64,000 nt of DNA, taken from positions 51,646,001 through 51,710,000 of the forward strand of contig NW_025964372.1 in NCBI RefSeq assembly GCF_023055435.1. The letters are read 5' to 3'. Positions within the stretch are counted from its first letter, which is position 1. Every line of letters starts with the position of its first letter. Position numbers and translations under genes: made by a program. A model generated the notes under the pieces. That model did no database searches. It worked only from the letters and a program-made list of their open reading frames with translations, and was not told the DNA's origin. This stretch comes from Haliotis rufescens (Eukaryota). This document shows positions 797 to 61,744 of the stretch, piece after piece.

Positions 797-961
797 TGAG
801 TGAGTGTGTATGATTTGACGCCACTTTTAGCAATATTCCAGCAATTTTACGGCGGGGGACACCAGAAATGGGCTTCACACATTGTACCCATGTCGGGAAT
901 CGAACCCGGGTCTTCGGCGTGACGAGCGAACGCTTTAACCACTAGGCTACCTGACCGCCCC
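797..961 (-). mobile_element. SINE family A (tRNA-Asp-like head, (ACTC)n tail)
   Basis: A box TAGCCTAGTGG, B box GGTTCGATTCC, GTC anticodon-like loop; approximate TSD gcttgtaaag. Confidence 0.9.
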
Positions 962-1428: not shown

Positions 1429-1944
1429 CTGCAATACAAACGTGGCTGCCATGACACCCCAGTTCCTCAGGGGTTCATACAACACGATCACAACATTTAA
1501 AAATTTAACAGAAATAATTTACCACACAGAAATAACTACCAAAACGTAAAATCAAAAGTAAGGAGGGTCATCCCAAAATGAAGAATTTACATGAAATGAA
1601 AGGAATTGAAGGAATCACAACAATTTAAATGTCTAATTATAAGTTATGGTTCAAACATTCATACTCACTACTTATTGGAAAGGAGAACTACATCAATGAG
1701 CATGATAAAATAAGTCAGTGAGCAATCAGAAGTGGGTCAATGAGCATACAAATAGTCCATCTTTATTCAAGCATATGCACCTATACTGAACAAAAAAGGT
1801 TAGGGTCATGACTATTTGGGGGGATATTTTGTGAAGACAATTTCATAAAAATATCCCATAAAATCAATATGATCCCAAAGTTTTTTGGTTCACTATAGAT
1901 ATATAATTGGAACAGCAGTATTGACTGGTGAGACTGACAGATGC

Positions 1945-3184
1945 AAGTGACAGGGCAAGTGACAGGGTGAGTGACAGGGTGAGTGACAGGGTGAGTGACA
2001 GGGCAAGTGACAGGGCAAGTGACAGGGCAGGGGCCAGGGCAAGTGACAGGGCAAGGGACAGGGCAAGTGACAAGGCAAGGGACAGGGCAAGTGACAGGGT
2101 GAGTGACAGGGCAAGTGACAGGGCAAGTGACAGGGCAAGGGACAGGGCAAGTGACAGGGCAAGTGACAGGGCGAGTGACAGGGCAAGGGCCAGGGCAAGG
2201 GCCAGGGCAAGTGACAGGGCAAGTGACAGGGTGAGTGACAGGGCAAGTGACAGGGCAAGCGACAGGGCAAGGGACAGGGCAAGGGACAGGGCGAGTGACA
2301 GGGCAAGGGCCAGGGCAAGTGACAGGGCGAGTGACAGGGCGAGTGACAGGGCAAGGGACAGGGCAAGGGACAGGGCAAGCGACAGGGCAAGCGACAGGGC
2401 AAGGGACAGAGCAAGGCACAGGGCGAGCGACAGGGCAAGCGACAGGGCAAGCGACAGGGCAAGGGACAGAGCAAGGCACAGGGCGAGCGACAGGGCAAGG
2501 GCCAGGGCGAGTGACAGGGCAAGGGACAGGGCAAGTGACAGGGTGAGTGACAGGGCGAGTGACAGGGCAAGGGCCAGGGCAAGTGACAGGGCGAGTGACA
2601 GGGCAAGTGACAGGGCAAGGGACAGGGCAAGCGACAGGGCAAGCGACAGGGCAAGGGACAGAGCAAGGCACAGGGCGAGCAACAGGGCAAGCGACAGGGC
2701 AAGCGACAGGGCAAGCGACAGGGCAAGGGACAGAGCAAGGCACAGGGCGAGCGACAGGGCAAGGGCCAGGGCGAGTGACAGGGTGAGTGACAGGGCGAGT
2801 GACAGGGCAAGGGCCAGGGCAAGTGACAGGGCAAGGGACAGAGCAAGTGACAGGGCAAGCGACAGGGCAAGCGACAGGGCAAGGGACAGAGCAAGGCACA
2901 GGGCGAGCGACAGGGCAAGCGACAGGGCAAGCGACAGGGCAAGGGACAGGGCGAGTGACAGGGCAAGGGACAGGGCAAGGGACAGGGCAAGCGACAGGGC
3001 AAGCGACAGGGTTAGGGACAGGGCAAGCAACAGGGCAAGCAACAGGGCAAGTGACAGGGCAAGCGACAGGGCGAGTGACAGGGCAAGGGACAGAGCAAGG
3101 CACAGGGCGAGTGACAGGGCGAGTGACAGGGCAAGGGACAGGGTAAGCGACAGGGCAAGGGACAGGGTAAGCGACAGGGCAAGG
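1945..3184. repeat. 12-bp G-rich minisatellite GACAGGGCAAG(T/C/G), about 100 units with higher-order blocks
   Basis: Direct periodicity; produces spurious ORFs in several frames. Confidence 0.97.
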
Positions 3185-3644
3185 TGCATGAGCTGAAACA
3201 GTGAAAGGTAACATAATGTAAGAGCATGATGGTCACACACAGACATAATCAGGCAAATCAGGGATTCAAACTCATAATCAGCAAATCCTGCCACCGAAGG
3301 GACACAACTCTGCAAGCCGTTGTGGCACCTGTGACCACTGGGCCATCTGCGTCCCCACTATGAACTGAAATATGTGATGGTGAGATACCTGTAGTGTGTC
3401 CTACACCCACAGCTTGTCAGATAGGAATAATCGCCCTGTGATTCCCAAGTCCACAAGACTTTGCTACCAATGTCCACAAGAGCCCAGATGACCATGCACA
3501 CCAAGCCATCACAAGCATGAAAAAAGAGTGTCACAGAGATAGGACCAAAAGAACATGTAAGAGAACTTGCAAGTATTGAGTACAAAAGGGCCCATTCAGT
3601 TTAAGCTCAAGAGCCCTGCATGCACACATGCTCAAGAGAAAAGA

Positions 3645-15419: not shown

Positions 15420-15930
15420 GCCTCCCAACTCCCCCACCCATACCTCCTCCCCCTTCCCCTACCCTGCACCCTACCTTTCCTTTACACCTTTCCCTCCCCT
15501 ACCCTGGTCGCACTCCCTCTATCCTTCCCTCCCTCCCTCTACCCTTCACTCCTCCCCCTCCCCTGCCTCTTCCCTTCCCTCTATCCCTGCCCTCCCCTGC
15601 CTCTATCATTCCCTATATCCCTGCTATCACCCCCTGCCTCTATCCTTCCCTCCCTCCCTCTACCCTTCACTCCTCCCCCTCCCCTGCCTCTTCCCTTCCC
15701 TCTATCCCTGCCCTCCCCTGCCTCTATCATTCCCTATATCCCTGCTATCACCCCTGCCTCTATCCTTCCCTCCCTCCCTCTACCCTTCACCCCTCCACTC
15801 CCCTGCCTCTTCCCTTTCCTCTATCCCTGCTTTCACCCCTGCCTCTTTCCTTCCCTCTATCCCTGACCTCCCCTCCATCCCTCTACCCCTGCCTCCTCCC
15901 CTCCCTCTATCACTGTTATTCCAACCTGCC
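15420..15930. repeat. polypyrimidine/polypurine low-complexity tract with an internal ~118-bp duplication
   Basis: Almost all C/T on the + strand; G-runs on the transcribed - strand. Confidence 0.9.
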
Positions 15931-15952
15931 TCCACCCTTGCAGTGCACCCAC

Positions 15953-17347
15953 CTGCAGTTCGAGCTGGTCCTGCAGGAGCTGTCTCTGCCTCTGGTACTC
16001 CTTGTACAGCTCATTGCTGGAGTCATGCACCGAGTTGCCCTGCACACGCGGGGACGTCCGGGACTCCATGGTCACACTCTGTGACGGCGACATTGATCTA
16101 GGGGGGACAACTGATGATCCTGGTTGAACCTGACCTTGAACTTGACCTCTGGGTGAAGCAGACGGAGGTGTTGAGCTTCTCGCAGGTGGTTTCCCTGGCG
16201 GAATACGCAGTGGTGATTTGATTTCATCAGATATAGAAGTGTGAGTGTCTACAATTTCACCAGTGGCAAACAGTTTGTCAACAGACATCAGCATCGGATT
16301 CTTCAAAGAGTTGTTGAGATTGGTTCCTGGGGCCATAGATCTGGAGAGGATGTTGAAGTCGTTAGAAGTGGACATGCTGTCCTTCCGCCCCTGGAACAGC
16401 CCACTGGTCAGGCCATCAAACTGCGGGTTCAGTGAGCGAGTCATGATCTCTGCTGACCGGGGTCTCACTGATGGAATAGCGGAGTGAGGAAACATCTTCG
16501 GCTTGATGGGAGTCACAAGGATCTGCTCAGACCAAGAAGCTTCCAGCGAAGGTCTAACAAAGGGTCGAATGTCTACATTCAGGGGTTTCTGTTCAAAGGG
16601 ACAGGAGAAGGTATCGTATGGGATGCTCTGTAACCACGACAATAAACTAAGATCAGCATCATTGAATCCAGTGTCACTCAGAACAGACGAGAACTTGATC
16701 TCGCTTTCATCGTTAGTTGCCTGCTGTTGGCAGTATTCAACACAGGATTCGTACAGGAGTCCCTTCAGCACGAGCTGGATGAGTCGGTCATTCTGGGCCG
16801 TGGTGTTCTTCAAGTCCCTTCTGTCCACAGGGAGGAACTTCTCCACCAGTGGCACGATGTCATTAAAGCACTGAACTCGGGCATTGCTGGGGTTCCAGTT
16901 CTGGAACTCAACGTGGTCCGAGAGTTTGGGGAGAGACAGAAGGAAACACAGGTTGCTGTACTCCTCCTTGTTGGGACAGAACTCCTCGAGGGAGTTCAAA
17001 CACTTCACCACCTCCTCCACGGTGAACTCGTAATTCTGCATCACATTAGGTTCAGATTTAATGCACAACAATTCCAGATACTTATGTTTCATGATGATGA
17101 ACTGGAACCCCTTCATGTCAAAGTTGTCGACGGTGACGAGGGGCTGGATAAACTCAATGACATCGTCCCACTGTCCATCGAGGATGAGTTGTCTCAGGAA
17201 CAGCATGTCGTCGGAGAAGAAGCCATTGATGATTCCTGTTTCCCGCTCCATAGACAACATGGAGATGTTGAGCTGTCTGTTGTGGAGGAACTCACAGATG
17301 AGTTTGACCACGTCCACTTCATTCATGACGAGATTCGCTGATGGCAT
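15953..17347 (-). CDS. WDR47: WDR47 first coding exon (LisH, CTLH, Ser/Pro-rich region, start of coiled coil)
   Basis: Translation VVKLICEFLHNRQLNISMLSMERETGIINGFFSDDMLFLRQLILDGQWDDVIEFIQPL...WNPSNARVQCF...LKGLLYESCVEYCQ closely matches the WDR47 N-terminus as I recall it. ATG at 17347, acceptor AG at 17451-17452, donor CAG|GTGGGT after 15953 (465 codons, phase 0). Confidence 0.95.
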
Positions 17348-17723
17348 TGTCAACTACAGAAAAAGAACAGCTAGTCTTCTACTCCTCAAGCAGATCTATG
17401 TCCGAACTCTTATACATCCAGTCTTTGCAACATAGTAAACTCCATTAATTCTGAAATCATAAATAATAACATGTATAATCAGGGTTACATGTAAATTATT
17501 AATACGATTTTATTACAAAGATGTTGAGAGGACATCGCTGATTTCTGTTCAATAACTAACTGATCAACTAGTAACTAACTTATGAAAATGGAAAAGAAAA
17601 ATGTTTCCTGTACAATTTTGAAAAGTCTTGTCATGTTAGTCACTTAATATATGTATTTGCTAAAATAAATATTTTGTTTTTAAATTTAAATTTTGTGTCT
17701 ATGTGACCAACTGATCGCAGCAG

Positions 17724-19262
17724 TAGGACTGTCATAACTCCAATTATCTTACTCAAGACCTACGGTAGTCATAGCATTAGGACTGTCATTACTCCAATTA
17801 TCTAACTCAAGACCTACGGTAGTCATAGCATTTGGACTGTCATTACTCCAATTATCTAACTCAAGACCTATGGTAGTCATAGCATTAGGACTGTCATAAC
17901 TCCAATTATCTAACTCAAGACCTACGGTAGTCATAGCATTAGGACTGTCATTACTCCAATTATCTAACTCAAGACCTAAGGTAGTCATAGCATTAGGACT
18001 GTCATTACTCCAATTATCTAACTCAAGACCTAAGGTAGTCATAGCATTAGGACTGTCATTACTCCAATTATCTAACTCAAGACCTATGGTAGTCATAGCA
18101 TTAAGACTGTCATTACTCCAATTATCTAACTCAAGACCTACGGTAGTCATAGCATTAGGACTGTCATTACTCCAATTATCTAACTCAAGACCTACGATAG
18201 TCATAGCATTAGGACTGTCATAACTCCAATTATCTAACTCAAGACCTACGATAGTCATAGCATTAGGACTGTCATAACTCCAATTATCTAACTCAAGACC
18301 TACGATAGTCATAGCATTAGGACTGTCATTACTCCAATTATCTAACTCAAGACCTACGATAGTCATAGCATTAGGACTGTCATAACTCCAATTATCTAAC
18401 TCAAGACCTACGATAGTCATAGCATTAGGACTGTCATAACTCCAATTATCTAACTCAAGACCTACGATAGTCATAGCATTAGGACTGTCATTACTCCAAT
18501 TATCTAACTCAAGACCTACGGTAGTCATAGCATTAGGACTGTCATTACTCCAATTATCTAACTCAAGACCTACGATAGTCAAAGCATTAGGACTGTCATT
18601 ACTCCAATTATCTAACTCAAGACCTACGATAGTCATAGCATTAGGACTGTCATTACTCCAATTATCTAACTCAAGACCTACAATAGTCATAGCATTAGGA
18701 CTGTCATAACTCCAATTATCTAACTCAAGACCTACGATAGTCATAGCAATAGGACTGTCATTACTCCAATTATCTAACTCAAGACCAACATTAGTCATAG
18801 CATTAGAACTGTCATTACTCCAATTATCTAACTCAAGACCTACGGTAGTCATAGCATTAGGACTGTCATAACTCCAATTATCTAACTCAAGACCTACGGT
18901 AGTCATAGCATTAGGACTGTCATTACTCCGATTATCTAACTCAAGACCTACGGTAGTCATAGCATTAGGACTGTCATTACTCCAATTATCTTACTCAAGA
19001 CCTACGGTAGTCATAGCATTAGGACTGACATTACTCCAATTATCTAACTCAAGACCTACATTAGTCATAGCATTAGAACTGTCATTACTCCAATTATCTA
19101 ACTCAAGACCTACGTTAGTCATAGCATTAGGACTGTCATTACTCCAATTATCTAACTCAAGACTTATGGTAGTCATAGCATTAGGACTGTCATTACTCCA
19201 ATTATCTAACTCAAGACCTACGGTAGTCATAGCATTAGGACTGTCATTACTCCAATTATCTA
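17724..19262. repeat. 54-bp minisatellite, about 28 highly similar copies
   Basis: Unit actcaagacctacggtagtcatagcattaggactgtcattactccaattatcta. Confidence 0.97.
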
Positions 19263-25237: not shown

Positions 25238-25565
25238 AATTAACTCAGGCTCTTTCTGTAACCTGATCAATGTTTCAGGTGTTCATACTGTCCCGAATCT
25301 TTCGTCCTTTTAAAAGCTACAAATGTTTCTTATTGTGATCTACATTGATATATTCGTTCTATCTGTTTCAGGCAAACAAGCCTCCAAAGTTCCTTGAAGT
25401 GTTAGTTACTATTGCGCTGTACTGCATAACATCAGAAAAACAGAAATAAAGGACATGCGAATCTTTGCCTGGCTAACTCAGTTGAGAAGAATCTCTAGGA
25501 GCTATATTGGGCGATACGTATAAAGAATAACTCCCGCTGACTTATCTAAGGATAAACGTAGAGCT

Positions 25566-28325
25566 ATGGAGACGGACACGGAGCAGAGATGTCCAGGTGT
25601 TTCGCAACCAGTGTCATGTTCTAGTTCCCCCTGGGCAGTCGTACTGAACCAAGACCAGTCTACTTCCGACTCCAGTGATGACGGGGACTCTGCTACCCAG
25701 GCCGCCCAAATATCCACGGCTGATGAGCACCAACAAGATGACTGCAGCAGAATAAAACCAGAACATGTTGAAAAATCGAACACCTCGAAAAGAAGGCCAA
25801 TTGGTCTCCCTGAAGAACATGCTCCCAGAAGAGCTGGGGACCTTGAAGGCGCAGGTAGGTCTGACGATGAAGACTTCATGATTGACACTTTCGATGATGT
25901 GGTGGAGAAACCTGATGACCCTGATGATAAACCTCCAGAGGACAGGCTTGTATCAGACCGAGTCCTGAGGCACCGCAGATGTCATAGGCTGCAGTGCAAT
26001 CAGTGTGGTATGTATATCGAGGAGAAGTGCTTCAAGCACCATGTGACTACAGCCCACCTGAGACAGAAGACTAACTTTCTGTGTAAAGACTGTGGAAAAG
26101 GGTTCAACTTTAAAAGCGGTTTAATTCTTCATAGGGCTAAACATCACGGTGGGAAACTGCTTAAGAGGACAATGATATCAGCATCACCACGTTCTGAGTC
26201 AAAGAAGATTAAAAAATCAGACAAAAATGTGAAATTATTCTGTGACGTTTGTGGAAAGACTTTTAAGCATATCACGTCCCTTTCTATCCACTTGGAGAAA
26301 CATGCTCTGCCAGAAATATTTGAATGTGGAATTTGTAATAAACCATTCGTTACCAAGGTAACGTATGAAGAGCATAGGGAATTCCATGAGGGTCTTCAGG
26401 TGAACCAGTGTTATATATGTGGGAAACTATGTGGCCGAAAGAAGCACTCACATGAAGCTCAATATGAATGTGATAAATGCTCAAAGATGTTCTTTGAGGC
26501 GACGCATCTCGCCATCCACATGGTGACTCACGCCCAACATGGTGGCATCCAGTGCAGCGTCTGCAAGCTTAAGTTCCCGTGTAAAACTGACTATGATCAG
26601 CATGTGAAGCAGCACACGGAAGGAGATGAACCCAAGAGATGTGAAATCTGTGGTAAGAGCTTTCCAACGAAGAGCCTTCTGAAGGGCCATGTCAGCATGG
26701 TTCACCTAGGGAAGAAGGGTCATCCGTGTAACATCTGCGGTGAGGAGTTCTTCAAACTGAAGCACCTTCAGGCTCACCATCGGGATCACGCCGTCAAGAA
26801 GGTCATCGCGTGTAACATTTGTGGAGAGTCTTTTGCCTTGAGGTCGAGTTTGAGGACACATATGCGAGTTCACCAGAATGATGTCATCTATAAATGTGTC
26901 GTGTGTCCAAAACAGGTTACAGATATGGATGCTCTGAAGGTTCATGTTGACGGTCATGGAGACGAGGACAGTCTGGACTGCTGTGTGTGTGGGATGCAGC
27001 TGGCAGACTGTGACGAGGTGATGGCGCACATCCGGAAACACAGGGGTGGTCAGCTGACGATGACAGAGGAAGAGTACAAATCCAAGAAGAGGCATGGATG
27101 CTCTGGAGAATCAGAGACCGGGGAACAGAAGGAGAGAGTGTCGGTGAAATGTACCGTCTGTCACAAGACCTTCCACTTTGTGTCCAGCCTCCAGTCACAC
27201 ATGCGCATTCACCAGACAGATCAGCTACTGAACTGCCACATCTGTCGTGAAGCGTGGCCTGGAGTCAAGGTGCTGAGAGAACACATCAAGGCCCACAGAA
27301 AGGACCTGAAGAACAACCCTGAAGATCCTCCTGACATAGCTGACCCTTCCACAGATGCTGGTCCCCCTAAGTCCTCCGAGGTCGGGAAGAAGAAGAGGCA
27401 TCGCTGTGACATCTGCCTTCAGAAGTTTGTGAGCTATTATGGTTGTAAGACACACAGGCTTCTCCACACAGGCGAGAAGCCTTTCCGCTGTGATGTATGT
27501 GGTCAGAGCTATGTCCTCGCGGGGTCACTGAAGGTGCACATGCTGTCTCATACTAACGAGAGGCCACATGTCTGTGAGATCTGCGGAAAGAGCTTCAAGC
27601 AGCCGTATATCCTCCGCGAGCACCAGATGTCCCACACGGGCAAGAAGCCGTTTCTGTGTGATCTCTGTGGCAAAAGTTTCGTGAACAAAAAGAAACTTAA
27701 GCTGCATACTTTTGTTCATACCCGTGAGACCCCCTTCAACTGTAAAGTTTGTGGGAGAGGCTTCAGGGCCTTTGTGACGAGACAGAAGCACAAGTGTGAA
27801 GGCCGCCCAACACCACAAGACCCTTCAGCAGATGCTTCAGAAGTCAGATCCAGGGATGTGGGACTTGTGGCTGTTGCAAGACCCCACACACAGCAGGTAC
27901 AGCTGCCACACGAATATCCGGCCTCGATGCCTAGCTATGGGGATTACGCGTACACTTCAGTTCCAGGACCGGAATACAACGTCAGTAACCTTGGTTACAA
28001 ACACCAAACAGGGCAGCATCTTTATGGACAGGATCCCTACCAACCAACTCATAGATCAATGGCTGGGCAGATGTTGCCCGTCTTGACCCGGGACTACATG
28101 CCGCCAGCGTCTCGGTACATCGATCCGAGGAACCCCCCTCCCCCGGTGCCCACCCCAGTTCCTCAACAACCACAGCCATCACTGAACTGGCAGGGATCTC
28201 CCCCCGGTGCGTCATGCACAGAAGGACTTCCGGGGGAGAGGGGGCATAGTCATGACAACCAGCAGTATCCGGTTGGAGCGACCAGGATCGACTTAGGATG
28301 GAAAGTGTCTGACAGAGATGGGTGA
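25566..28325 (+). CDS. C2H2 zinc-finger protein (~19 fingers, single coding exon)
   Basis: 919-aa ORF with repeated CxxC...HxxxH units and canonical linkers (HTGEKPF, HTNERPH, HTGKKPF). Acidic N-terminus, Pro/Gln/Tyr-rich C-terminus, upstream acceptor tgtttcag at about 25371. Confidence 0.95.
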   Translation: METDTEQRCPGVSQPVSCSSSPWAVVLNQDQSTSDSSDDGDSATQAAQISTADEHQQDDCSRIKPEHVEKSNTSKRRPIGLPEEHAPRRAGDLEGAGRSDDEDFMIDTFDDVVEKPDDPDDKPPEDRLVSDRVLRHRRCHRLQCNQCGMYIEEKCFKHHVTTAHLRQKTNFLCKDCGKGFNFKSGLILHRAKHHGGKLLKRTMISASPRSESKKIKKSDKNVKLFCDVCGKTFKHITSLSIHLEKHALPEIFECGICNKPFVTKVTYEEHREFHEGLQVNQCYICGKLCGRKKHSHEAQYECDKCSKMFFEATHLAIHMVTHAQHGGIQCSVCKLKFPCKTDYDQHVKQHTEGDEPKRCEICGKSFPTKSLLKGHVSMVHLGKKGHPCNICGEEFFKLKHLQAHHRDHAVKKVIACNICGESFALRSSLRTHMRVHQNDVIYKCVVCPKQVTDMDALKVHVDGHGDEDSLDCCVCGMQLADCDEVMAHIRKHRGGQLTMTEEEYKSKKRHGCSGESETGEQKERVSVKCTVCHKTFHFVSSLQSHMRIHQTDQLLNCHICREAWPGVKVLREHIKAHRKDLKNNPEDPPDIADPSTDAGPPKSSEVGKKKRHRCDICLQKFVSYYGCKTHRLLHTGEKPFRCDVCGQSYVLAGSLKVHMLSHTNERPHVCEICGKSFKQPYILREHQMSHTGKKPFLCDLCGKSFVNKKKLKLHTFVHTRETPFNCKVCGRGFRAFVTRQKHKCEGRPTPQDPSADASEVRSRDVGLVAVARPHTQQVQLPHEYPASMPSYGDYAYTSVPGPEYNVSNLGYKHQTGQHLYGQDPYQPTHRSMAGQMLPVLTRDYMPPASRYIDPRNPPPPVPTPVPQQPQPSLNWQGSPPGASCTEGLPGERGHSHDNQQYPVGATRIDLGWKVSDRDG

Positions 28326-33756: not shown

Positions 33757-34083
33757 GTCAGTAGTTGATCAGCTGGTAGCACGTGCGTCCTTAGTGGTAC
33801 AATGACGTCTCATTTCACAGGACATGGTAGAATGTTGTTTAGAGCTACATACATAAATATTCCAGCCACATGGCGGCCTGGATATAGATTATCGAGTCTG
33901 GACCAGACGAACCAGTGACTGAACACATGAGCACCCAACTCCGCCGCCGGGCTACGATGACATGCAGTCACGCGATTATATCAGATCCGGAACCCCCTGG
34001 GACACCAGTACACAAAGCAGTAAACTGTCTACAAACTGCCATCTTCCCGCGGCAAGGGAGTTAACTCACTGTAAAATTCCAGG

Positions 34084-34759
34084 TTGATGATTGATGATCA
34101 TTAAAAGGTTTTATTGGTGTTCGGGCATTTACACCTTGCCTATAATTAGGTTTTCTAAGTACCTAGATATTTTATAAAGTATCAAAACTGCCACATGCTT
34201 TAATATACGCGAGAATGACATTCTGAACATCATGGCGAACAATATTCCTAGAACATAAAATGCCAGACAATGAGAAGTCAATTTTGAGAACTTTTAGAGA
34301 CTCCACCATTGCCTTACGCTGATTAACATACTTTTGGCAATGCAATAGAAAATGAGCTACATTACCAAGCTGATTACACACTGTACAATGTGCAGAAATG
34401 TCTCTATTTATAACATTAAGATAAGCACCAAGACCACAATGCCCAAGACGAAGTCGAGAGAACCTCCCCTCTCCGATTATTTCTAGATATGTGTAATTTA
34501 GTGATAAAAGAATCGATGCCATAAAGATGACGTCCTTTTAAGGATGATGCCCATCTCTGCTGCCCTTTTGTTTTAGCATGGGTCATACTGACGGTGCCTA
34601 AATTAAATAAAATTATTTCAACCTGTTTTGAGTCATCAAATTCTAGTGCAGCTTTTGCCAATTTATCAGCTTTCTCATTTCCAAGTAATCCAACATGAGC
34701 AGGGATCCATGAAAATTCAACTTTACTTAAGCCATTATAAAGGACGAGAATAACCAAAG
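34084..34759 (-). mobile_element. 5'-truncated I-group LINE fragment (RNase H and C-terminal zinc knuckle), frameshifted
   Basis: WIPAHVGLLGNEKADKLAK (RNase H) and RLRLGHCGL...CTVC...HFLLHC. Short 3' UTR with an ATCA-type tail; TSD tccagg. Confidence 0.9.
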
Positions 34760-34898: not shown

Positions 34899-35402
34899 GG
34901 GACCCGTGAAGATCCGATTAAAATAGGGCTTCAGCAACCCATGCTTGTCGTAAGAGGCGTAAGAGGATCGGGTAGTCAGGCTCGCTGACTTTGTTGATGC
35001 ATGTCCTCGTATCACAAACGCTTAGGATCGATGCTCATGATATCAATCACTGGATCGTCTGGTCCAGACAAGATGTTTTACAGACCGCGTCAAATAGCTG
35101 GAATATTGCTGAGTGCGGTGTAAAACAACAAACAAACAAGAAATGGTCATGTATCACTTGTTCATATAAGGCGACTATGCTTGTCGTAAAAGGCGACTTA
35201 CGGGATCGGGTGGTCAGGCTCGCTGACTTGGTTGATGCATGTCATCGATCCCAAATGCGTGGATTGATGTTCATGATATCAATCACTGGATTGTCTGGTC
35301 CAGACTCGATTATTTACAGACCGCCGTCATATAGCTGGAATATTGCTGAGTGCGGTGTTCAACAACAAACCAACCAACAAACCAACCAACCAACCAACCA
35401 AC
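34899..35402 (+). mobile_element. two tandem family B copies (34899-35139 and 35165-35402)
   Basis: The first copy starts gggacccgtgaagatcc; both end in AAC-rich tails. Confidence 0.9.
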
Positions 35403-37522: not shown

Positions 37523-37693
37523 GGGGCGGTCGGGTAGCCTAGTGGTTAAAGCGTTCGCTCGTCACGCCGAAGACCCGGGTTCGATTCCCGACATGGGTAC
37601 AATGTGTGAAGCCCATTTGTGGTGTCCCCCGCCGTGATATTGCTGGAATATTGCTAAAAGCGGCGTAAAACCATACTCACTCACTCACTCACT
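37523..37693 (+). mobile_element. SINE family A, young full-length copy
   Basis: 15-bp TSD tccatggcccactgg at 37510 and 37693. Confidence 0.95.
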
Positions 37694-45676: not shown

Positions 45677-47376
45677 ATATCCTTTGCAAATACTAATAGT
45701 TCATTTCTGAGTCACGAAATTCTGTATCTTATTCAGGAAAGAAATGTGACCAACCGTTTAAATCTTATTCGAACCTAAGTCTCTTGAGACAAAATATTTT
45801 ATTGAAACATTTTGATCAGGAAGCAGCTAAGAATTTCACATCCTCAATGCTGTCTAATTAATGATGCCTCTAGGCAAAAATGAGTTCTCAACTCTGAGGT
45901 GTTATCAGAGACCCTATACTAGACTATATGGTCTCCGGTGTAATGTTATTTATTTTGTTGAAACATAACTACTAGAAACAAATATCTGTAGCATATTTGG
46001 AAGAAATGATGTTTCAAAATTCTAATCACATGTATTTAAGGGTCATTGGGGAAGATATTTATTACACGTTTGCATGTTTGTTATCTATGGGGTTCAAGGA
46101 ACCAGGTTAAGACATTAAACTCCATACAAAGCACATGCGCTATGCTTTTCAGCACTAATGTTATGTTACTGACATCATTGCAATCTCATTAAAATGAGAT
46201 ATTTAACTCTGATACCACCCTGTATGGTTTGTTTGTTTGTTTGTTTGTTGTTTAACGCCGCACTCCGCAACATTCCAGCTATATGGTGGGTGTTTGTTAA
46301 TAATCAAGTCTGGCCCCGACAATCCAGTGATTGACATCATGAACATCGATCCGCGCAATTGGGATTGATGACAAGCATCAACAAGTCAGCGAGTCTGAGC
46401 ACCCGATCCCGTTAGCCGCCTCTTACGACAAGCATTGTCACCTTTTATGGCAAGCATGGGTTGCTGAAGATCTATTTTACCCCAGATCTTCACGGGTCCC
46501 ACCCTGTATAAAGATCTGAAGACACCTCCATAGGAGGTCGTGTCCGGTGAACTTTCTAGTCTACTAGTCAGTGCCAAGGATGCTAACTTCTCGGTATGAG
46601 TGATCTAAGCCTTGAGACCTCCATATCTGATCTTTGTATCACGAAAAAAAAGTTAATCCTCTTGTTCCGAATGTAAATGATACATGCCCTTATGTTGTTA
46701 TGTAGTATTATGTTTACCATATCGTCTCTGGGCGCCATGGTATCTACCCCAAAAGGGAGAAGTTTGGTTCTTTTGCTAAAATCAAAATTCCTGAATTGAG
46801 GTGGTGAAATGAAGCTAAATCATGTTAGAAAGCTGAACTCTGATTGGCCGAGGAACCCTTCATGCTTCCTTCATTTGAGTGTGCTGTAAAAAGCAACCTT
46901 CTATGGCAGTATGGGGATGTCCAAGATCTTCACACACAGAGGCATCATATCCCAGTTAAGGATCTGACTTTAATGAGATTGGAAAACATTGTTGATGTGC
47001 AGGAGGTAATTAAGTACATATGTTTTGGTTTGGGAATTAAATACACCTGAGCTGTTTAGTTGAAACCAAAATGTTTTTGTCAAGTTAGTAACAACTTAGT
47101 TGACAAGAAATTCATTGGGAAATCCGATAAAGATCCACATTTTACATACTTTTTTCTAGATGATAAAAGTGATCCCGCTATTGATGAGTACATTAACTCA
47201 GAACTAATGTTACTTTTGAACCTGGCTGATCATATTTACTTATCTATAATCAGGGCCACAGCATCTTCATGTGACTCTATTTATCCATGTGACATTGATT
47301 GAAAAATGAATATTTGTCCGTTATTATTTGCTTCTTGCATGCCCCATTTTGGCAAATTTTGCTTAACTTTAGATAC
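45677..47376 (+). other. ARPC5: U12-type (minor spliceosome) AT-AC intron
   Basis: 5' end ATATCCTTT, branch site TTGCTTAAC at 47359-47367, terminal AC at 47375-47376. Splicing here restores the frame (CA|A GGA AAA). Confidence 0.9.
46226..46498 (-). mobile_element. full-length family B copy inside the U12 intron
   Basis: The 11-bp TSD ccaccctgtat at 46215 and 46499 defines both ends. Confidence 0.93.
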
Positions 47377-51557: not shown

Positions 51558-51728
51558 GGGGCGGTCGGGTAGCCTAGTGGTTAAAGCGTTCGCTCGTCAC
51601 GCCGAAGACCCGGGTTCGATTCCCGACATGGGTACAATGTGTGAAGCCCATTTCTGGTGTCCCCCGCCGTGATATTGCTGGAATATTGCTAAAAGCGGCG
51701 TAAAACTGTACTCACTCACTCACTCACT
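51558..51728 (+). mobile_element. SINE family A, young full-length copy
   Basis: 13-bp TSD tccaaggtttatg at 51545 and 51728. Confidence 0.95.
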
Positions 51729-52927: not shown

Positions 52928-53829
52928 AGATTTGCATACACTACGGTTTATCTCTGGCTATAGAAACTGGTGAAGTATTGAGGCTTGTAGGACAGTGTAA
53001 GATGTAGATCTAACTACAACTAGGGATAATCCTTGTTCCACTGACATCCATTCTGTGTAGAACAACAAAGTTTGTTTTCCCACTGACTTGTCACAGCTAG
53101 GTCTGTGCCCATCTTCATCATGTGATGTCAAGTTTATCACAGAATGATTTTATATTCATGTTTTCCATATATCTGAATAAAATGATATGTATTCATATTA
53201 AGTCCTGTTTATTGTCAGCCATGCATGACTTACAGATGTGGTTGTGCAGACCACTGCATCTGGGGAACCTGACGAATCTGAGAAACGGGATATTCTTGAT
53301 TATTTACAGGATGCCGTCATATAGCTTGAATAATCCTGAGTGCCTATAAAAAATGACAAAATGATGTAGGAGGAAAGACTGAAGTGATGCAGGTCGTGGA
53401 GGTTAACACATTTGCATGGGTATGGTGCTGACAAACCTAGAAACAATCTGGGTGAATCTGGGATTCGAACCATAGATTTCTGCCACACCTAGGAGACGCA
53501 ACATGCCTCTCCTGGGATTCAACCCATAGATTTCTGCCATGCCTAAGAGAAACAAAATGCCTCCCCCTGGGGCATTCGAAAACAACCAGTGCATCCTTAG
53601 CAGCAGATGGAGCTCCTTAGGAATTCTGTCTTGGAAATGGTGGGTGAATTTCATTTTACACTTGGGAGGGATGTCACGACTACCATAGGTTGTGGATGCC
53701 ACGTGTATGGTGTGGACAAACATAGGGTCATAATTGGGGCTAACAGGGATCCAACCCTGATCACCACACTGCCGAGGAACTAAACGATGCTTGGATCAGC
53801 ATGAACATAGGATGTAGTAAATCCCACAA

Positions 53830-54061
53830 GACCAGTGAAGATCCAGGGTAGAAAAGGTCTTCAGCAACCCATGCTTGTCAAAAGAGGCGACTAACGGGAT
53901 CGGGTGGTCAGGCTTCTCGACTTGGTTGAAGCATGTCATCGTATCCCAATTGATTCTCATGATGTCAATCACTGGAATGTCTGGTCCAGACTTAATTATT
54001 TACAGACCGCCATCATATAGCTGGAATATTGCTGATTGCGGTGTTACACAACAAACAAACA
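53830..54061 (+). mobile_element. full-length family B copy
   Basis: Starts gaccagtgaagatcc; single hairpin unit. Confidence 0.9.
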
Positions 54062-54299
54062 TACCACAATGATGAAGCCACTGCAACAGTTTGGGAAGGT
54101 AGAATGCCTTCCAGCTACCGGTTCTTGGCATGGAAGCCCATCTTATCCTTCACTCAACTGATGAAGACAAACCAGGTGAATACAGGTGATAATTTATTAG
54201 TTAAAACAGAAAAACAATTATAAATTTTTTTTCAAAAATGGTTAAAGTCAGAGGATGTGAGCAGTATTTGTTGTTTCACGATTGTCACTGGATGGGTGC

Positions 54300-57827: not shown

Positions 57828-58825
57828 TACTTTAAAAAGAAAACCTTTGTGATGTAGAGTGTTAATATTCATAATTGTTTTGTTTTTTTCTGAATATTAT
57901 GGCCACATATAAAAGTTGAGTTAGGTCCTGGGAATCAAAACTAGCATCAGTTCTCAACACTAGAATGTGCTGGCAGTTACACTAAGCCGTCAATGGTTAA
58001 CAGTTAAAGGTCAAGGCTTTACGTCTCACAAGTTCAGGGTCACCTCTTCATGATAATTTTTCCCGATGACAAAAGACTAAGAGGGCAGTGTTGTAGTTCT
58101 ATCTTGTAATAGCTGCCTGCAATCAAGGTGACATGTTTTCAGTTTCATTTAATTTCTAAGGTCCACCGAGTCCTCACTTTGCTTTGCAAATAACAGTAAT
58201 TTTCTTAGTGGTATGCAATTGTGCGCATCTCACAGGAAGTGCAAGTCAAAACATGGGGCAACAGCAATGGGCACCTTGCAGGTTGTCTGCTTACATTGTA
58301 TGCTTTATTTCATCAAAACATCAGCTGTCCATGGTATAAGTTTGTATATTTCATTGTCAGGAATCTTAAGAAAATGTTTTTGGTGTATAACAACCTATAT
58401 TTTGAGGTAAAACAGTAAGTCAAAATGTACTTCAGGGATTTCTCTTAAAAAATGTCCTAGAAAAACCTGGAAAACATAAATTTGTCCCAAAAATGTTCGT
58501 TGGACATGCTGGATGTCCTGACAAAAATATGTGTTTTAAAAACAATTAAATGGTTGGTTTCCTCCACAGAAAGAAAGGAATAGGACCTTATGATTAAACT
58601 TGATAAAAAAAAGTGTCTGACCATCAGCATGATTAGGATAACAGTCAGACAATGACCAGGGAACATACTGGTAAATCAGTCTAAAACCCTGTGTAACCAT
58701 GTTAACACTAATGACTCAGATTATTCATACAAACTTAAGAGACATGAAATCACCAACATTTACAAAATGACAGGAAAACAAATCATAGGTTATGTCTTTG
58801 GCATAATGTAATAACAGACTTCTTT

Positions 58826-59083
58826 GTTTCTTTGTTTGTTGTTTAACGCCGCACTCAGCAATATTCCAGCTATATAGCGACGGTCTGTAAATAATCGAGT
58901 CTGGACAAGACAACCCAGTGATTGACATCATGAGCATCGATCTTCACAATTGGGATACGATGACATGCATCAACCAAGTCAGCGAGCCGGACAACCCAGC
59001 AAGCCTGACAACCCGATCCTTTTAGTTTCCTGACATGACAAGTATGGGTTGCTGAAGATCAATTCTAACCCGGATCTTCACTG
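58826..59083 (-). mobile_element. family B copy
   Basis: Family consensus including the 5' hairpin. Confidence 0.88.
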
Positions 59084-59369
59084 GAGGTTCAGTCCTTCAG
59101 TCAGGGTATCTCAGTTCATCATGTGTGGTGTGACCTTCACTGTTCCACTTGTGAAACATACGCGACTCAAAGTATGATACTTCATTCCAAACACAGCCAA
59201 ATAATACATCACACTAGGGTCGGCTGGGTAACCATAGTCTAAAACAGATATTGTCACCAGTTATGTTTGCCTTTAGGTAGCCAAGTGGTGAGCAGGAGAT
59301 AAATTCAGGTCACCAATCATAGATGTAAGTAGCATTTGGCCACCAAAAATGGTCGTTTCTTAGAGCCAA

Positions 59370-60484: not shown

Positions 60485-61612
60485 TCAGGAGAACATCTTG
60501 CTAAGTCCTGAAGCCATCTTGCTGTCCACCTGTCTTTGTTTGACCTGCAGCTGGCCTAGTAGCTGTAGCACAGCCTTGTTCTGGGGTTCAAGAGAGGCCA
60601 CCATCTCCAGGTCTGATCTCGCTGAATCTGTGTCGTTAAAGAAAAGATAAGCTTGTCCTCGGCGATACAGTGCCTTAACATTCTTCGGTTCAATTTCTAT
60701 AGCCTTAGAGCAATTCTGTACAACCTCACTGAACATATTCAACTTCATCTGACAAGCAGCTAAGTTGGAGTAACACTGACATTTTAACTTGCAGTATGTT
60801 TCGAGCAGGTGCTCTGGAATACAGTCTTGTGGATGGCAACACACGAGATATTTCAACGCTTTGCTAAATCTCCTGAAGGCAAACTCTATGTTCCCGAGCT
60901 GAAATAACACAGTTCCCTTCTCTTTGTGATGAGCAGCACGGCTGATCTTTTCTTCTGGAAGCAGTTGCCATGACAACACAGACTCTTGAAACGACATCAA
61001 ATGGATTCTAAAAGAACATGTATCACAGACACCAGTTTGGTCATTGAGTGAGTTGATTTGTATCTGAATATCACACACCTCCCCTTCTTTCATTGTCTGT
61101 AGGCAGAGGTCGAGCTGTCGAGCGATATCAGTATCCCCCTCACCCACCATTATCACAATGTTATCCCCTATGCCATACCCAAGTTGTTCAGTTGTTAATA
61201 TACATGAATTCAAAACTACAATATTAACATTGCAAAGAGTTCCATCTTTTGGCACCAGCAGACCAGTTCCAGGAGACAGGATTAGTTTGGAGAATGTTTG
61301 GTAGTTCCTGACTGTTCCTGGCAGACACACGGCAGGGGGGACAGCACTGAAGCCGTTGACATCATTATGGCTGTTGTCCGGATGAAGCACACTGCTGCCA
61401 TTACCATTAACACATCCACCATCACTGGCTTCCGACATGTCTCTGTTTTCTGTTGCCATGGCCACGGAAATGCCATCTTTTGGTAAGAAGCCAGTAAGGG
61501 GAGAAGCTAGGTCACAGTCTGGGTAGGTGGGAACATCTGTTGCCATGGATTCCTCTGCCATCTCACCATCCATGAATTGACATGGATCTTCCTCCTCTGC
61601 ATCTACATCCAT
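60485..61612 (-). CDS. FKBPL: FKBP-like TPR co-chaperone (degenerate FKBP domain plus 3 TPRs), single coding exon
   Basis: LDLCLQTMKEGEVC, KEKGTVLF...FSKALKYL, YSNLAACQMK, NVKALYRRGQAY and a C-terminal GLSKMFS. Acceptor at 61634-61635. Confidence 0.8.
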   Translation of the reverse strand: MDVDAEEEDPCQFMDGEMAEESMATDVPTYPDCDLASPLTGFLPKDGISVAMATENRDMSEASDGGCVNGNGSSVLHPDNSHNDVNGFSAVPPAVCLPGTVRNYQTFSKLILSPGTGLLVPKDGTLCNVNIVVLNSCILTTEQLGYGIGDNIVIMVGEGDTDIARQLDLCLQTMKEGEVCDIQIQINSLNDQTGVCDTCSFRIHLMSFQESVLSWQLLPEEKISRAAHHKEKGTVLFQLGNIEFAFRRFSKALKYLVCCHPQDCIPEHLLETYCKLKCQCYSNLAACQMKLNMFSEVVQNCSKAIEIEPKNVKALYRRGQAYLFFNDTDSARSDLEMVASLEPQNKAVLQLLGQLQVKQRQVDSKMASGLSKMFS

Positions 61613-61744
61613 CGTGTCGAGTCACTCCTCAACCTGCCACAACGACATGGAAACTCATTTTACAACTTGATACAATGGATTCTTGTCTTACAGATTTAAC
61701 ATGTTTAATGTGCATACATTCTTACAGGCATGATAGGAAGTAAA

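Follow-up and report, generated by a model that had tools for sequence, protein, structure and literature searches.

A predicted pseudoknotted RNA module at the 5' end of LP-type retroposons that recurs in virus genomes: a possible barrier to exonucleases

How SINEs without Pol III boxes come to have a defined 5' end, and what the job of the LP head of such elements is, has been an open point for ten years. The question is raised again by family B, a retroposon without a tRNA head that is present in many copies in a stretch of 64,000 nucleotides of Haliotis rufescens (contig NW_025964372.1, positions 51,646,001 to 51,710,000), here referred to as the window. The head of these elements starts at their first base (+1), its stems covary, and it is common to autonomous LINEs, other retroposons and virus genomes. 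By analogy with viral xrRNAs, the head may act as a barrier to 5'-to-3' exonucleases, a reading to which we assign a probability of roughly 0.4.

Family B and the fold of its head

The copy with its +1 at 46498 and further features of family B are located as follows; S2 and P4 denote parts of the head that are described below.

46226..46498 (-): full-length family-B retroposon of the LP-SINE type, 273 bp with the 22-nt internal duplication and the (CAAA)n tail counted in
46499..46509 (-): 5' target-site duplication (TSD) of the 46498 copy, 11 bp
46215..46225 (-): 3' TSD of the 46498 copy, 11 bp
46250..46284 (-): tail segment common to family B and the tRNA-headed family A, presumably a LINE-recognition tail
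46430..46451 (-): diverged 22-nt duplicate of the hairpin unit, present in several other window copies
53830..54064 (+): family-B copy with complete head and without the duplication, scoring 68.9 bits with the head model, whose seed includes this copy
34901..35139 (+): family-B copy from +1 with decayed head, TSD not found
58820..59084 (-): family-B copy aligned from +3, S2 intact and P4 decayed

A BLAST search of the window with the 46498 copy gave 27 matches, 20 of which were taken as family-B pieces, in agreement with the more than 15 copies counted in an earlier, sequence-only reading of this DNA. The remaining seven are short tail matches, several of which lie inside family A; the tail segment itself has 35-nt matches at 37637, 51672, 52634 and 54414. 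The head model detects 17 of the 22 listed window matches at E<0.02. Family A SINEs, found at 885-956 (-), 37528-37599 and 51563-51634, possess a tRNA head, perfect A/B boxes and a last stretch of ~35 nt in common with family B, and this common tail sequence suggests that one partner LINE serves both families. Family B was said to lack Pol III A/B boxes, and indeed the best fits in three copies have 2-3 mismatches compared to 0 in family A, the tRNA-headed control for the box patterns. TSDs of 11-13 bp had also been described; exact TSDs at plausible places were found in four of the 20 pieces, namely 46498 (11 bp), 22944 (13 bp), 39604 (13 bp) and 35163 (15 bp), so that the range reaches 15 bp, and no TSD of at least 8 bp was found for the copies 34899, 53830 and 59084.

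The claim that several copies start at the same point held for the position, but not for the sequence on which it was based: G46498 is the fixed 5' end of full-length copies, whereas the 15-mer thought to mark it is exact in only two copies (34900 and 46499), has two mismatches at 53829, and the 59084 copy aligns only from +3. Eight of the 20 family-B pieces reach to within 5 nt of +1 by local alignment, which can over-extend (the TSD of 22944 suggests a start at around +7); the other 12 start later, as expected of 5'-truncated retroposons. Evidence for the fixed end comes from a genomic run of the same or a related species, in which 46,820 of 8,054,229 contigs were placed on the 46498 copy. 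Depth falls from 151,715 at 46492-46504 to 341 at 46505-46517, and among the best 6 of 359 rows the highest counts of loose ends with differing flanks are found at 46498 (895) and 46497 (389); therefore, full-length copies share one 5' end. Most truncated copies of the window start inside the first ~70 nt, which is in the head and not in the body; such truncations might reflect pausing of the reverse transcriptase at the fold, or a detection bias. The length of the head, previously given as ~75 nt, is ~95 nt in the 46498 copy because of the 22-nt hairpin duplication. The same duplication marks a subfamily with further copies at 1276, 22944, 35163, 36993, 39604, 40216, 42272 and 61980, in which the upstream duplicate of the hairpin unit tends toward the loop TAAAAGG.

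Judged by sequence, family B is very probably the mollusc LP-SINE of Matetovici 2016 (PMC4758252), a likening made through head, size and tail rather than by alignment to Hdi_LP, as the Haliotis consensus is given as a figure only (figure 3A). According to the accessible parts of that paper, LP-SINEs occur in Haliotis, oysters and Littorina; the named LP-type elements are Hdi_LP and Hmi_LP (Haliotis), Oco_LP and Oed_LP, Sgl_LP, Lsa_2 and the pectinoid MESC head. The consensus in Haliotis has 255 bp, and the LINE-derived LP head of ~70 nt is common to the 5' ends of Nimb-17_LMi, I-3_DR and RTE-9_CPB (PMC4758252). As described there, LP-SINEs have no tRNA head, a head of ~70 nt, a size of ~255 bp, TSDs and a tandem-repeat tail, like family B with its 235-273 bp, TSDs of 11-15 bp in 4/20 pieces and (CAAA)n tail. 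The homology to the ~70-nt 5' end of Nimb/RTE LINEs is seen both in the LINE of locus L388, which is described below, and in the scallop head printed in the supplement, which by eye has the same S1, S2, linker, P3 and hairpin as family B; the Pan_3 hairpin region matches the family-B hairpin as well, and motifs of the family-B body were not found in the supplementary text at hand (PMC4758252). A head derived from a known small RNA, the second objection raised earlier, did not turn up: at the Rfam gathering score, the only relevant matches in the window are three family-A tRNA heads, and family B has neither A/B boxes nor a tRNA, 5S, 7SL or snRNA match (best E 7.6 for 46200-46560). The element type and its head have been known since 2016, whereas the fold and its presence in viruses were not found in the open literature (subscription papers and Repbase reports lie outside it) or in Rfam 15. 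The available LP-SINE text gives no RNA structure, covariation or viral occurrence, unlike the present analysis (PMC4758252). The head fold was also not found in the main text of the AbRiDGed preprint (2026, ~150 new ribozyme classes), whose supplements could hold the motif.

The head is predicted to be a two-domain RNA, in which a 5'-terminal H-type pseudoknot is followed by a stem, an internal loop and a hairpin. The first base of the pseudoknot is the first base of the element. In homologues, the strand order is S1, one U, the 7-bp S2, S1', a linker ending in RGAAUA and S2', and the second domain consists of the stem P3, an internal loop and the hairpin P4, GUCG-UAARAGG-CGAC. The parts are located as follows in the 46498 copy:

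46493..46498 (-): 5' strand of S1, GACCCG; G46498 is +1 of the element
46485..46491 (-): 5' strand of S2, GAAGATC, with a single U (46492) ahead
46480..46484 (-): 3' strand of S1, inside the S2 loop
46473..46479 (-): conserved A-rich linker L3, TAAAATA here and TAGAATA in most homologues
46466..46472 (-): 3' strand of S2, GATCTTC
46458..46460 (-): 5' strand of P3, CCC, pairing with GGG 46408-46410
46408..46410 (-): 3' strand of P3, GGG
46412..46429 (-): hairpin P4, GTCG-TAAGAGG-CG(G)C plus TAA, the part whose sequence varies least

L3 is predicted to lie in the minor groove of S1. In alignments whose rows were picked with a descriptor, and against shuffles that ignore relatedness, all six counted S2 pairs change on both sides and 92.6% of the cells are paired in 18 rows, which none of 500 shuffles reach. 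With a fixed register in 16 rows, S2 is paired to 98% (0/5000 shuffles) and S1 to 80% (6/5000 shuffles), with the outermost S1 pair being formed in only six of the 16. The whole fold is paired to 86.8% in a set of 16 non-viral rows (0/500 shuffles), and P3 scores 10.4 compared to 7.1 for shuffled alignments (21 rows, 0/5000). The invariance of P4 is partly circular, since P4 was fixed by the search pattern; locus L395, which was found by a search that did not fix P4, has one compensatory P4 change and one broken pair. Only 30 of the 105 linker-bearing pattern loci (133 examined) score at least 9, against 0/120 and 1/120 chance loci, and many of the low-scoring ones are decayed or contain long L3 insertions. 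By itself, the 46498 copy does not fold better than expected by chance (z -1.48; 20/200 shuffles as good).

These results revise the fold that was proposed from the window. Its two hairpins, TGAAGATC/GATCTTCA and GTCG-TAAGAGG-CGAC, exist, whereas the outer stem CCCGT/ACGGG and the GGGT/ACCC pseudoknot are not conserved, being paired to 47.5% compared to 47.8% in shuffled alignments, a test in which the ACCC columns are poorly aligned and the outer-stem columns well anchored. On copy 53830, the nested part of that fold reaches -7.5 kcal/mol compared to -10.8 kcal/mol for the revised one. In the supported pseudoknot, the first strand pairs with the loop of the GAAGATC stem. Covariation thus speaks against the original pairs and for another pseudoknotted fold made of S1, S2 and P3, and the broader claim of a conserved pseudoknotted, presumably functional RNA exactly at the 5' end is upheld by covariation and the fixed end.

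The module in LINEs, other retroposons and viruses

The exact 19-nt hairpin pattern, derived from the window copies, was found in 122 stretches of 1/64 of a metagenome collection, from which about 8,400 are estimated in all, mostly on animal-looking contigs from few data sets. Prokaryotic sequence contains nine matches in 596 billion bases; a prokaryotic occurrence was rejected, as the matches inspected are eukaryote-like or chimeric (L380, L384), whole LINEs (L381, L385) or hairpin-only (L386). The eukaryote-like stretches in prokaryotic records (L380 1-570, L384, L381 and L385/L388) are probably host contamination or chimeric joins, and an intact complete LINE sits in a symbiont assembly (L385/L388). 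It had been suggested that the motif should be sought at the 5' end of an autonomous LINE, and it is present there: positions 909-984 of L388 head an intact APE-RT-RNase H LINE with a first frame of 521 codons and another of 1238 codons that encodes endonuclease, reverse transcriptase and RNase H; the head of this LINE was in the seed of the model as L385. A TSD was not found for this LINE. Downstream of the hairpin in L384 and L379, the sequence presumably resembles RTE-type 5' UTRs.

Several unrelated retroposon families are headed by the module. In the unrelated family W1 (37 of 41 copies used), conservation is 0.27-0.51 upstream, 0.65 at the base before S1 and 0.78-0.89 within S1, and TSDs end at the S1 boundary in three of the 11 copies with enough flank. 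In 46 metagenome copies, the sequence ahead of the module is random, and a purine (G or A) occupies +1 in 39 of them. The 5' boundary thus lies at S1 in three data sets, the genomic run, family W1 and the metagenome copies, and no family with fixed sequence upstream of the module was seen among the retroposon families examined. Family M1 has the module joined to the 5' side of a tRNA-like head, an arrangement also known from the published scallop SINE; in L322, L334 and L314, another animal family, a tRNA-like SINE head follows directly 3' of the module hairpin. The distance from +1 to the hairpin ranges from 49 to 192 nt, and amplified families contain about 50-130 extra nt of low-complexity sequence in L3 with both stems still recognisable (L3 insertions are found in L266, L318, L350, L308, L313 and L330). 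One metagenome contig (L290, 1371-1517) has two tandem modules with different stem sequences.

The hairpin pattern is also present in nine viral contigs, seven of which possess the full module (two are nearly identical) and two the hairpin only; a second pattern added the viral contig L395. Four module-bearing viral contigs encode RdRP domains and one a tetravirus-type capsid domain, and one unclassified contig has a 949-codon frame without a Pfam match. The module follows the last ORF in five RNA-virus contigs, one of the viruses identified being Shuangao toti-like virus (L004), and in one unclassified viral contig. In the six contigs that are not from an iridovirus, it is located on the coding strand, 3' of the last long frame, at a distance of 6-23 nt from the stop codon in four and of about 75 and 100 nt in two. 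No ORF of more than 20 codons lies downstream of it in the five viral contigs checked, some of which may be incomplete; a role in stop-codon readthrough or as an IRES for a downstream viral ORF was rejected on these grounds. In invertebrate iridescent virus 6 (IIV-6, L003), the module sits between genes, downstream of 206R, and the next ATG follows 143 nt later. The ribozyme drz-CIV-1 of Chilo iridescent virus was considered as the identity of this copy and is, by the part of the source available, a different sequence (PMC6265322). The contig L001 contains two tandem copies, each with 7/7 S2 pairs, one of them via a change on both sides. A covariance model built from non-viral rows gives the viral copies 38-72 bits and the hairpin-only loci 25-28 bits, and scores 100 of 240 chance loci with at most 13.8 bits; these 240 loci, found with loose viral patterns, are essentially chance and were used as controls. 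A phage collection gave one 31-nt match only (E 3). Among related viruses the module is rare: it was found in one of 17 toti-like loci (nine with a tail of at least 90 nt) and in one of 80 tombus-like loci (best 80 of 100; 29 with a tail of at least 90 nt), 45 of which were searched with speed filters. Because of this rarity, the patchy sequence distribution points to sporadic capture of the module, followed by selection on the fold.

The occurrence in viruses bears on the function that was originally proposed for the LP head, that of a promoter, for which L1Tc promoter/ribozyme was cited as an analogy only (PMC4758252, accessible text). As an internal DNA promoter and nothing else, the head would contain a palindromic factor site, GTCG-N7-CGAC, and both the purine at +1 and the near-invariant, non-covarying P4 (in part fixed by the search pattern) would suit such a role. 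However, S2, S1 and P3 show compensatory changes, the module is conserved in RNA viruses without a DNA stage, and the spacing between +1 and the hairpin varies. Because of the covariation and the survival in such viruses, the head appears to work as RNA and not as a DNA promoter alone, which makes the promoter-only explanation very improbable; an RNA role of whatever kind may be combined with a promoter, as in Pr77.

The viral position also raises the possibility that the module is a binding site for the ribosome or a translation factor, in analogy to a 3' CITE in viruses, and that it aids translation of LINE ORF1 and brings SINE RNA to LINE-translating ribosomes. The comparison draws on general properties of 3' CITEs. 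The position of the module in tombus-like, toti-like and tetra-like contigs, where the 3' UTR begins, the patchy, apparently horizontally acquired pattern (1/17 and, for the best 80 of 100, 1/80 relatives), the IIV-6 module ahead of an ATG, the invariant hairpin sequence and the tolerated L3 insertions are consistent with this proposal. Binding alone would leave the sharp 5' end unexplained, many non-coding SINE families keep the module, and there is no match to an Rfam IRES or CITE family; we regard this role as rather unlikely. Still less probable is that the pseudoknot binds right-hand polymerases, namely the LINE reverse transcriptase, which would thereby finish the 5' junction, and the viral RdRp. 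This idea rests on analogy to F1Pk, an in vitro selected aptamer of HIV-1 RT with a UCCG:CGGG stem and an A-rich loop in the minor groove (PMC3561961, in the parts accessible), which is much like S1 and L3 in being an H-type pseudoknot with a CCG:CGG stem and an A-rich minor-groove loop, and on the presence of the head in several LINE clades (PMC4758252). However, F1Pk has a shorter loop and no second domain, and RT aptamers are artificial and target-specific; moreover, the module lies 30-180 nt upstream of the 3' ends of the viral contigs and is absent from most relatives, IIV-6 is a DNA virus, and the conserved hairpin would find no explanation.

Candidate functions of the module

A barrier to 5'-to-3' exonucleases is favoured because the role has to make sense at two places, namely where viral 3' UTRs begin and at the 5' end of retroposons, among them SINEs that encode no protein. 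At a retroposon, the knot would protect the template RNA of transposition from loss of its 5' end, so that the first base of S1 would mark the end of full-length copies. This RNA might start at +1 by internal initiation, at which the purine at +1 hints, or might be trimmed back to +1 from a read-through host transcript. In RNA viruses, a sporadically captured module would halt XRN where the 3' UTR begins, giving rise to a short non-coding 3' RNA, as xrRNAs do. A stable 5' fold has been found to favour template use by R2 (PMC11331408, as far as accessible). xrRNAs are compact, pseudoknot-dependent, located in 3' UTRs, often in tandem, and distributed over unrelated viruses (PMC8374639, accessible parts). 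The module is like the flavivirus 1a, 1b and 2, the Tombusviridae/Luteoviridae and the Benyviridae xrRNAs in its modeled pseudoknot, its position near the start of viral 3' UTRs and its sometimes tandem copies. Unlike the classes described there, it has no three-way junction and no apical loop pairing back to a downstream strand, its secondary structure has no Rfam match, and it is also found at retroposon 5' ends and in a DNA virus (PMC8374639).

Several points speak against an exonuclease barrier. The predicted secondary structure yields no drawable ring of 15-16 nt around the 5' strand, and the 50-130 extra nt in L3 might break a tight ring. The purine at +1 is more in keeping with initiation or cleavage than with trimming. 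A few extra bases usually remain when an exonuclease stalls, yet the S1 boundary is sharp. The invariant 19-nt hairpin might just as well be bound by a protein or by the ribosome. The small-RNA runs X21-X23 gave one, one and zero reads, too few to weigh either way.

The sharp boundary would be accounted for if the module belonged to a new class of self-cleaving ribozymes, with a cut immediately 5' of S1 that frees the element from host co-transcripts. HDV-like ribozymes release R2, RTE and L1Tc in this manner, and those of R2, RTE, L1Tc/Ingi (Pr77) and drz-CIV-1 have a pseudoknot at the first nucleotide and are spread over unrelated elements, as is the head. The 5' end, which is sharp to the nucleotide and coincides with the first base of the fold, the purine at +1 in 39/46 copies, the invariant core bases and the restriction of the module to the extreme 5' end, even ahead of the tRNA-like head of family M1, all suit cleavage, and such a position is expected of a 5'-cleaving ribozyme (PMC5786205, accessible text). 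Linear RNA viruses do carry ribozymes in their UTRs; however, these mostly precede ORFs, unlike the viral module (PMC13725137, in the parts accessible). A cut 3' of the last ORF would cost the virus its 3' terminus without any ORF gaining from it. Furthermore, a fixed cleavage site would hardly be expected to have an outermost S1 pair that is frayed in most rows (formed in 6/16) or a preceding base that differs among viruses, and the linker takes long insertions. The ribozyme role raised by the sequence-only reading is therefore possible, yet unlikely, and not the best reading of the data.

That the head fits no known ribozyme family, as had been stated, was corroborated by searches of the window and eight viral loci, which gave no match to an Rfam ribozyme family, including hammerhead, twister, pistol, hatchet and twister-sister. 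In a scan with core descriptors, hammerhead or twister cores were found in 0/17 segments, and the HDV L3 pattern in only three of 17, at unrelated places. The supported topology differs from the nested double pseudoknot of HDV-like ribozymes (order P1-P2-P3/L3-P1.1-P4-J4/2), and the P3/L3 core is lacking; the C-U-A-A after the last hairpin of the head is, we assume, similar to J4/2 of HDV. A likeness to the pistol ribozyme, which we take to lie in the 5' stem with loop pseudoknot, the A-rich linker and a GCGU-like tetramer before the terminal stem, is offset by a different strand order and by the fact that an equivalent cut would remove the head, which the copies keep.

More broadly, a mobile module of undescribed fold, traded among LINE clades, SINEs, an insect DNA virus and unrelated RNA viruses, would set RNA 5' ends through its own structure, and it would be either the first retrotransposon-borne exonuclease-blocking RNA, with promoter-less elements carved from host read-through transcripts, or a new ribozyme class; this wider proposal is tentative. 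Should the head block XRN, xrRNAs would extend beyond viruses, and retrotransposons would have a third means of defining their 5' end in addition to promoters and ribozymes. Should it cleave, Rfam lacks a ribozyme class with thousands of copies in animal sequence. Either way, a functional RNA module would be exchanged between retroposons and RNA viruses, and the head might serve as a small 5'-stabilising part for RNA-templated gene insertion.

Other features of the window

A broken C-terminal remnant of an RNase H-bearing LINE ORF2 with 35-36% identity to the L388 protein is located at 34172-34721 (-) and seems to end in its own tail near 34085. Just downstream, 33833-33975 (-) is an old diverged homologue of the 3' 140 nt of family B, which is either an old B copy or a LINE 3' UTR. 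The remnant was considered as the partner LINE of family B, a link that is not claimed here, as the remnant seems to have a tail of its own ahead of the B-like stretch. A 413-codon open frame at 17749-18990 (-), with weak Pfam matches to SsdA_C and HPIP_like and no single passing stretch, is probably a tandem repeat, and the strongly purine-skewed region 1781-3357, which contains long open frames on both strands, is likely a simple repeat array. Host exons are represented by a WDR47-like frame at 15857-17353 (-), a multi-C2H2 zinc-finger frame at 25524-28325 (+) and an FKBP/TPR frame at 60485-61621 (-).
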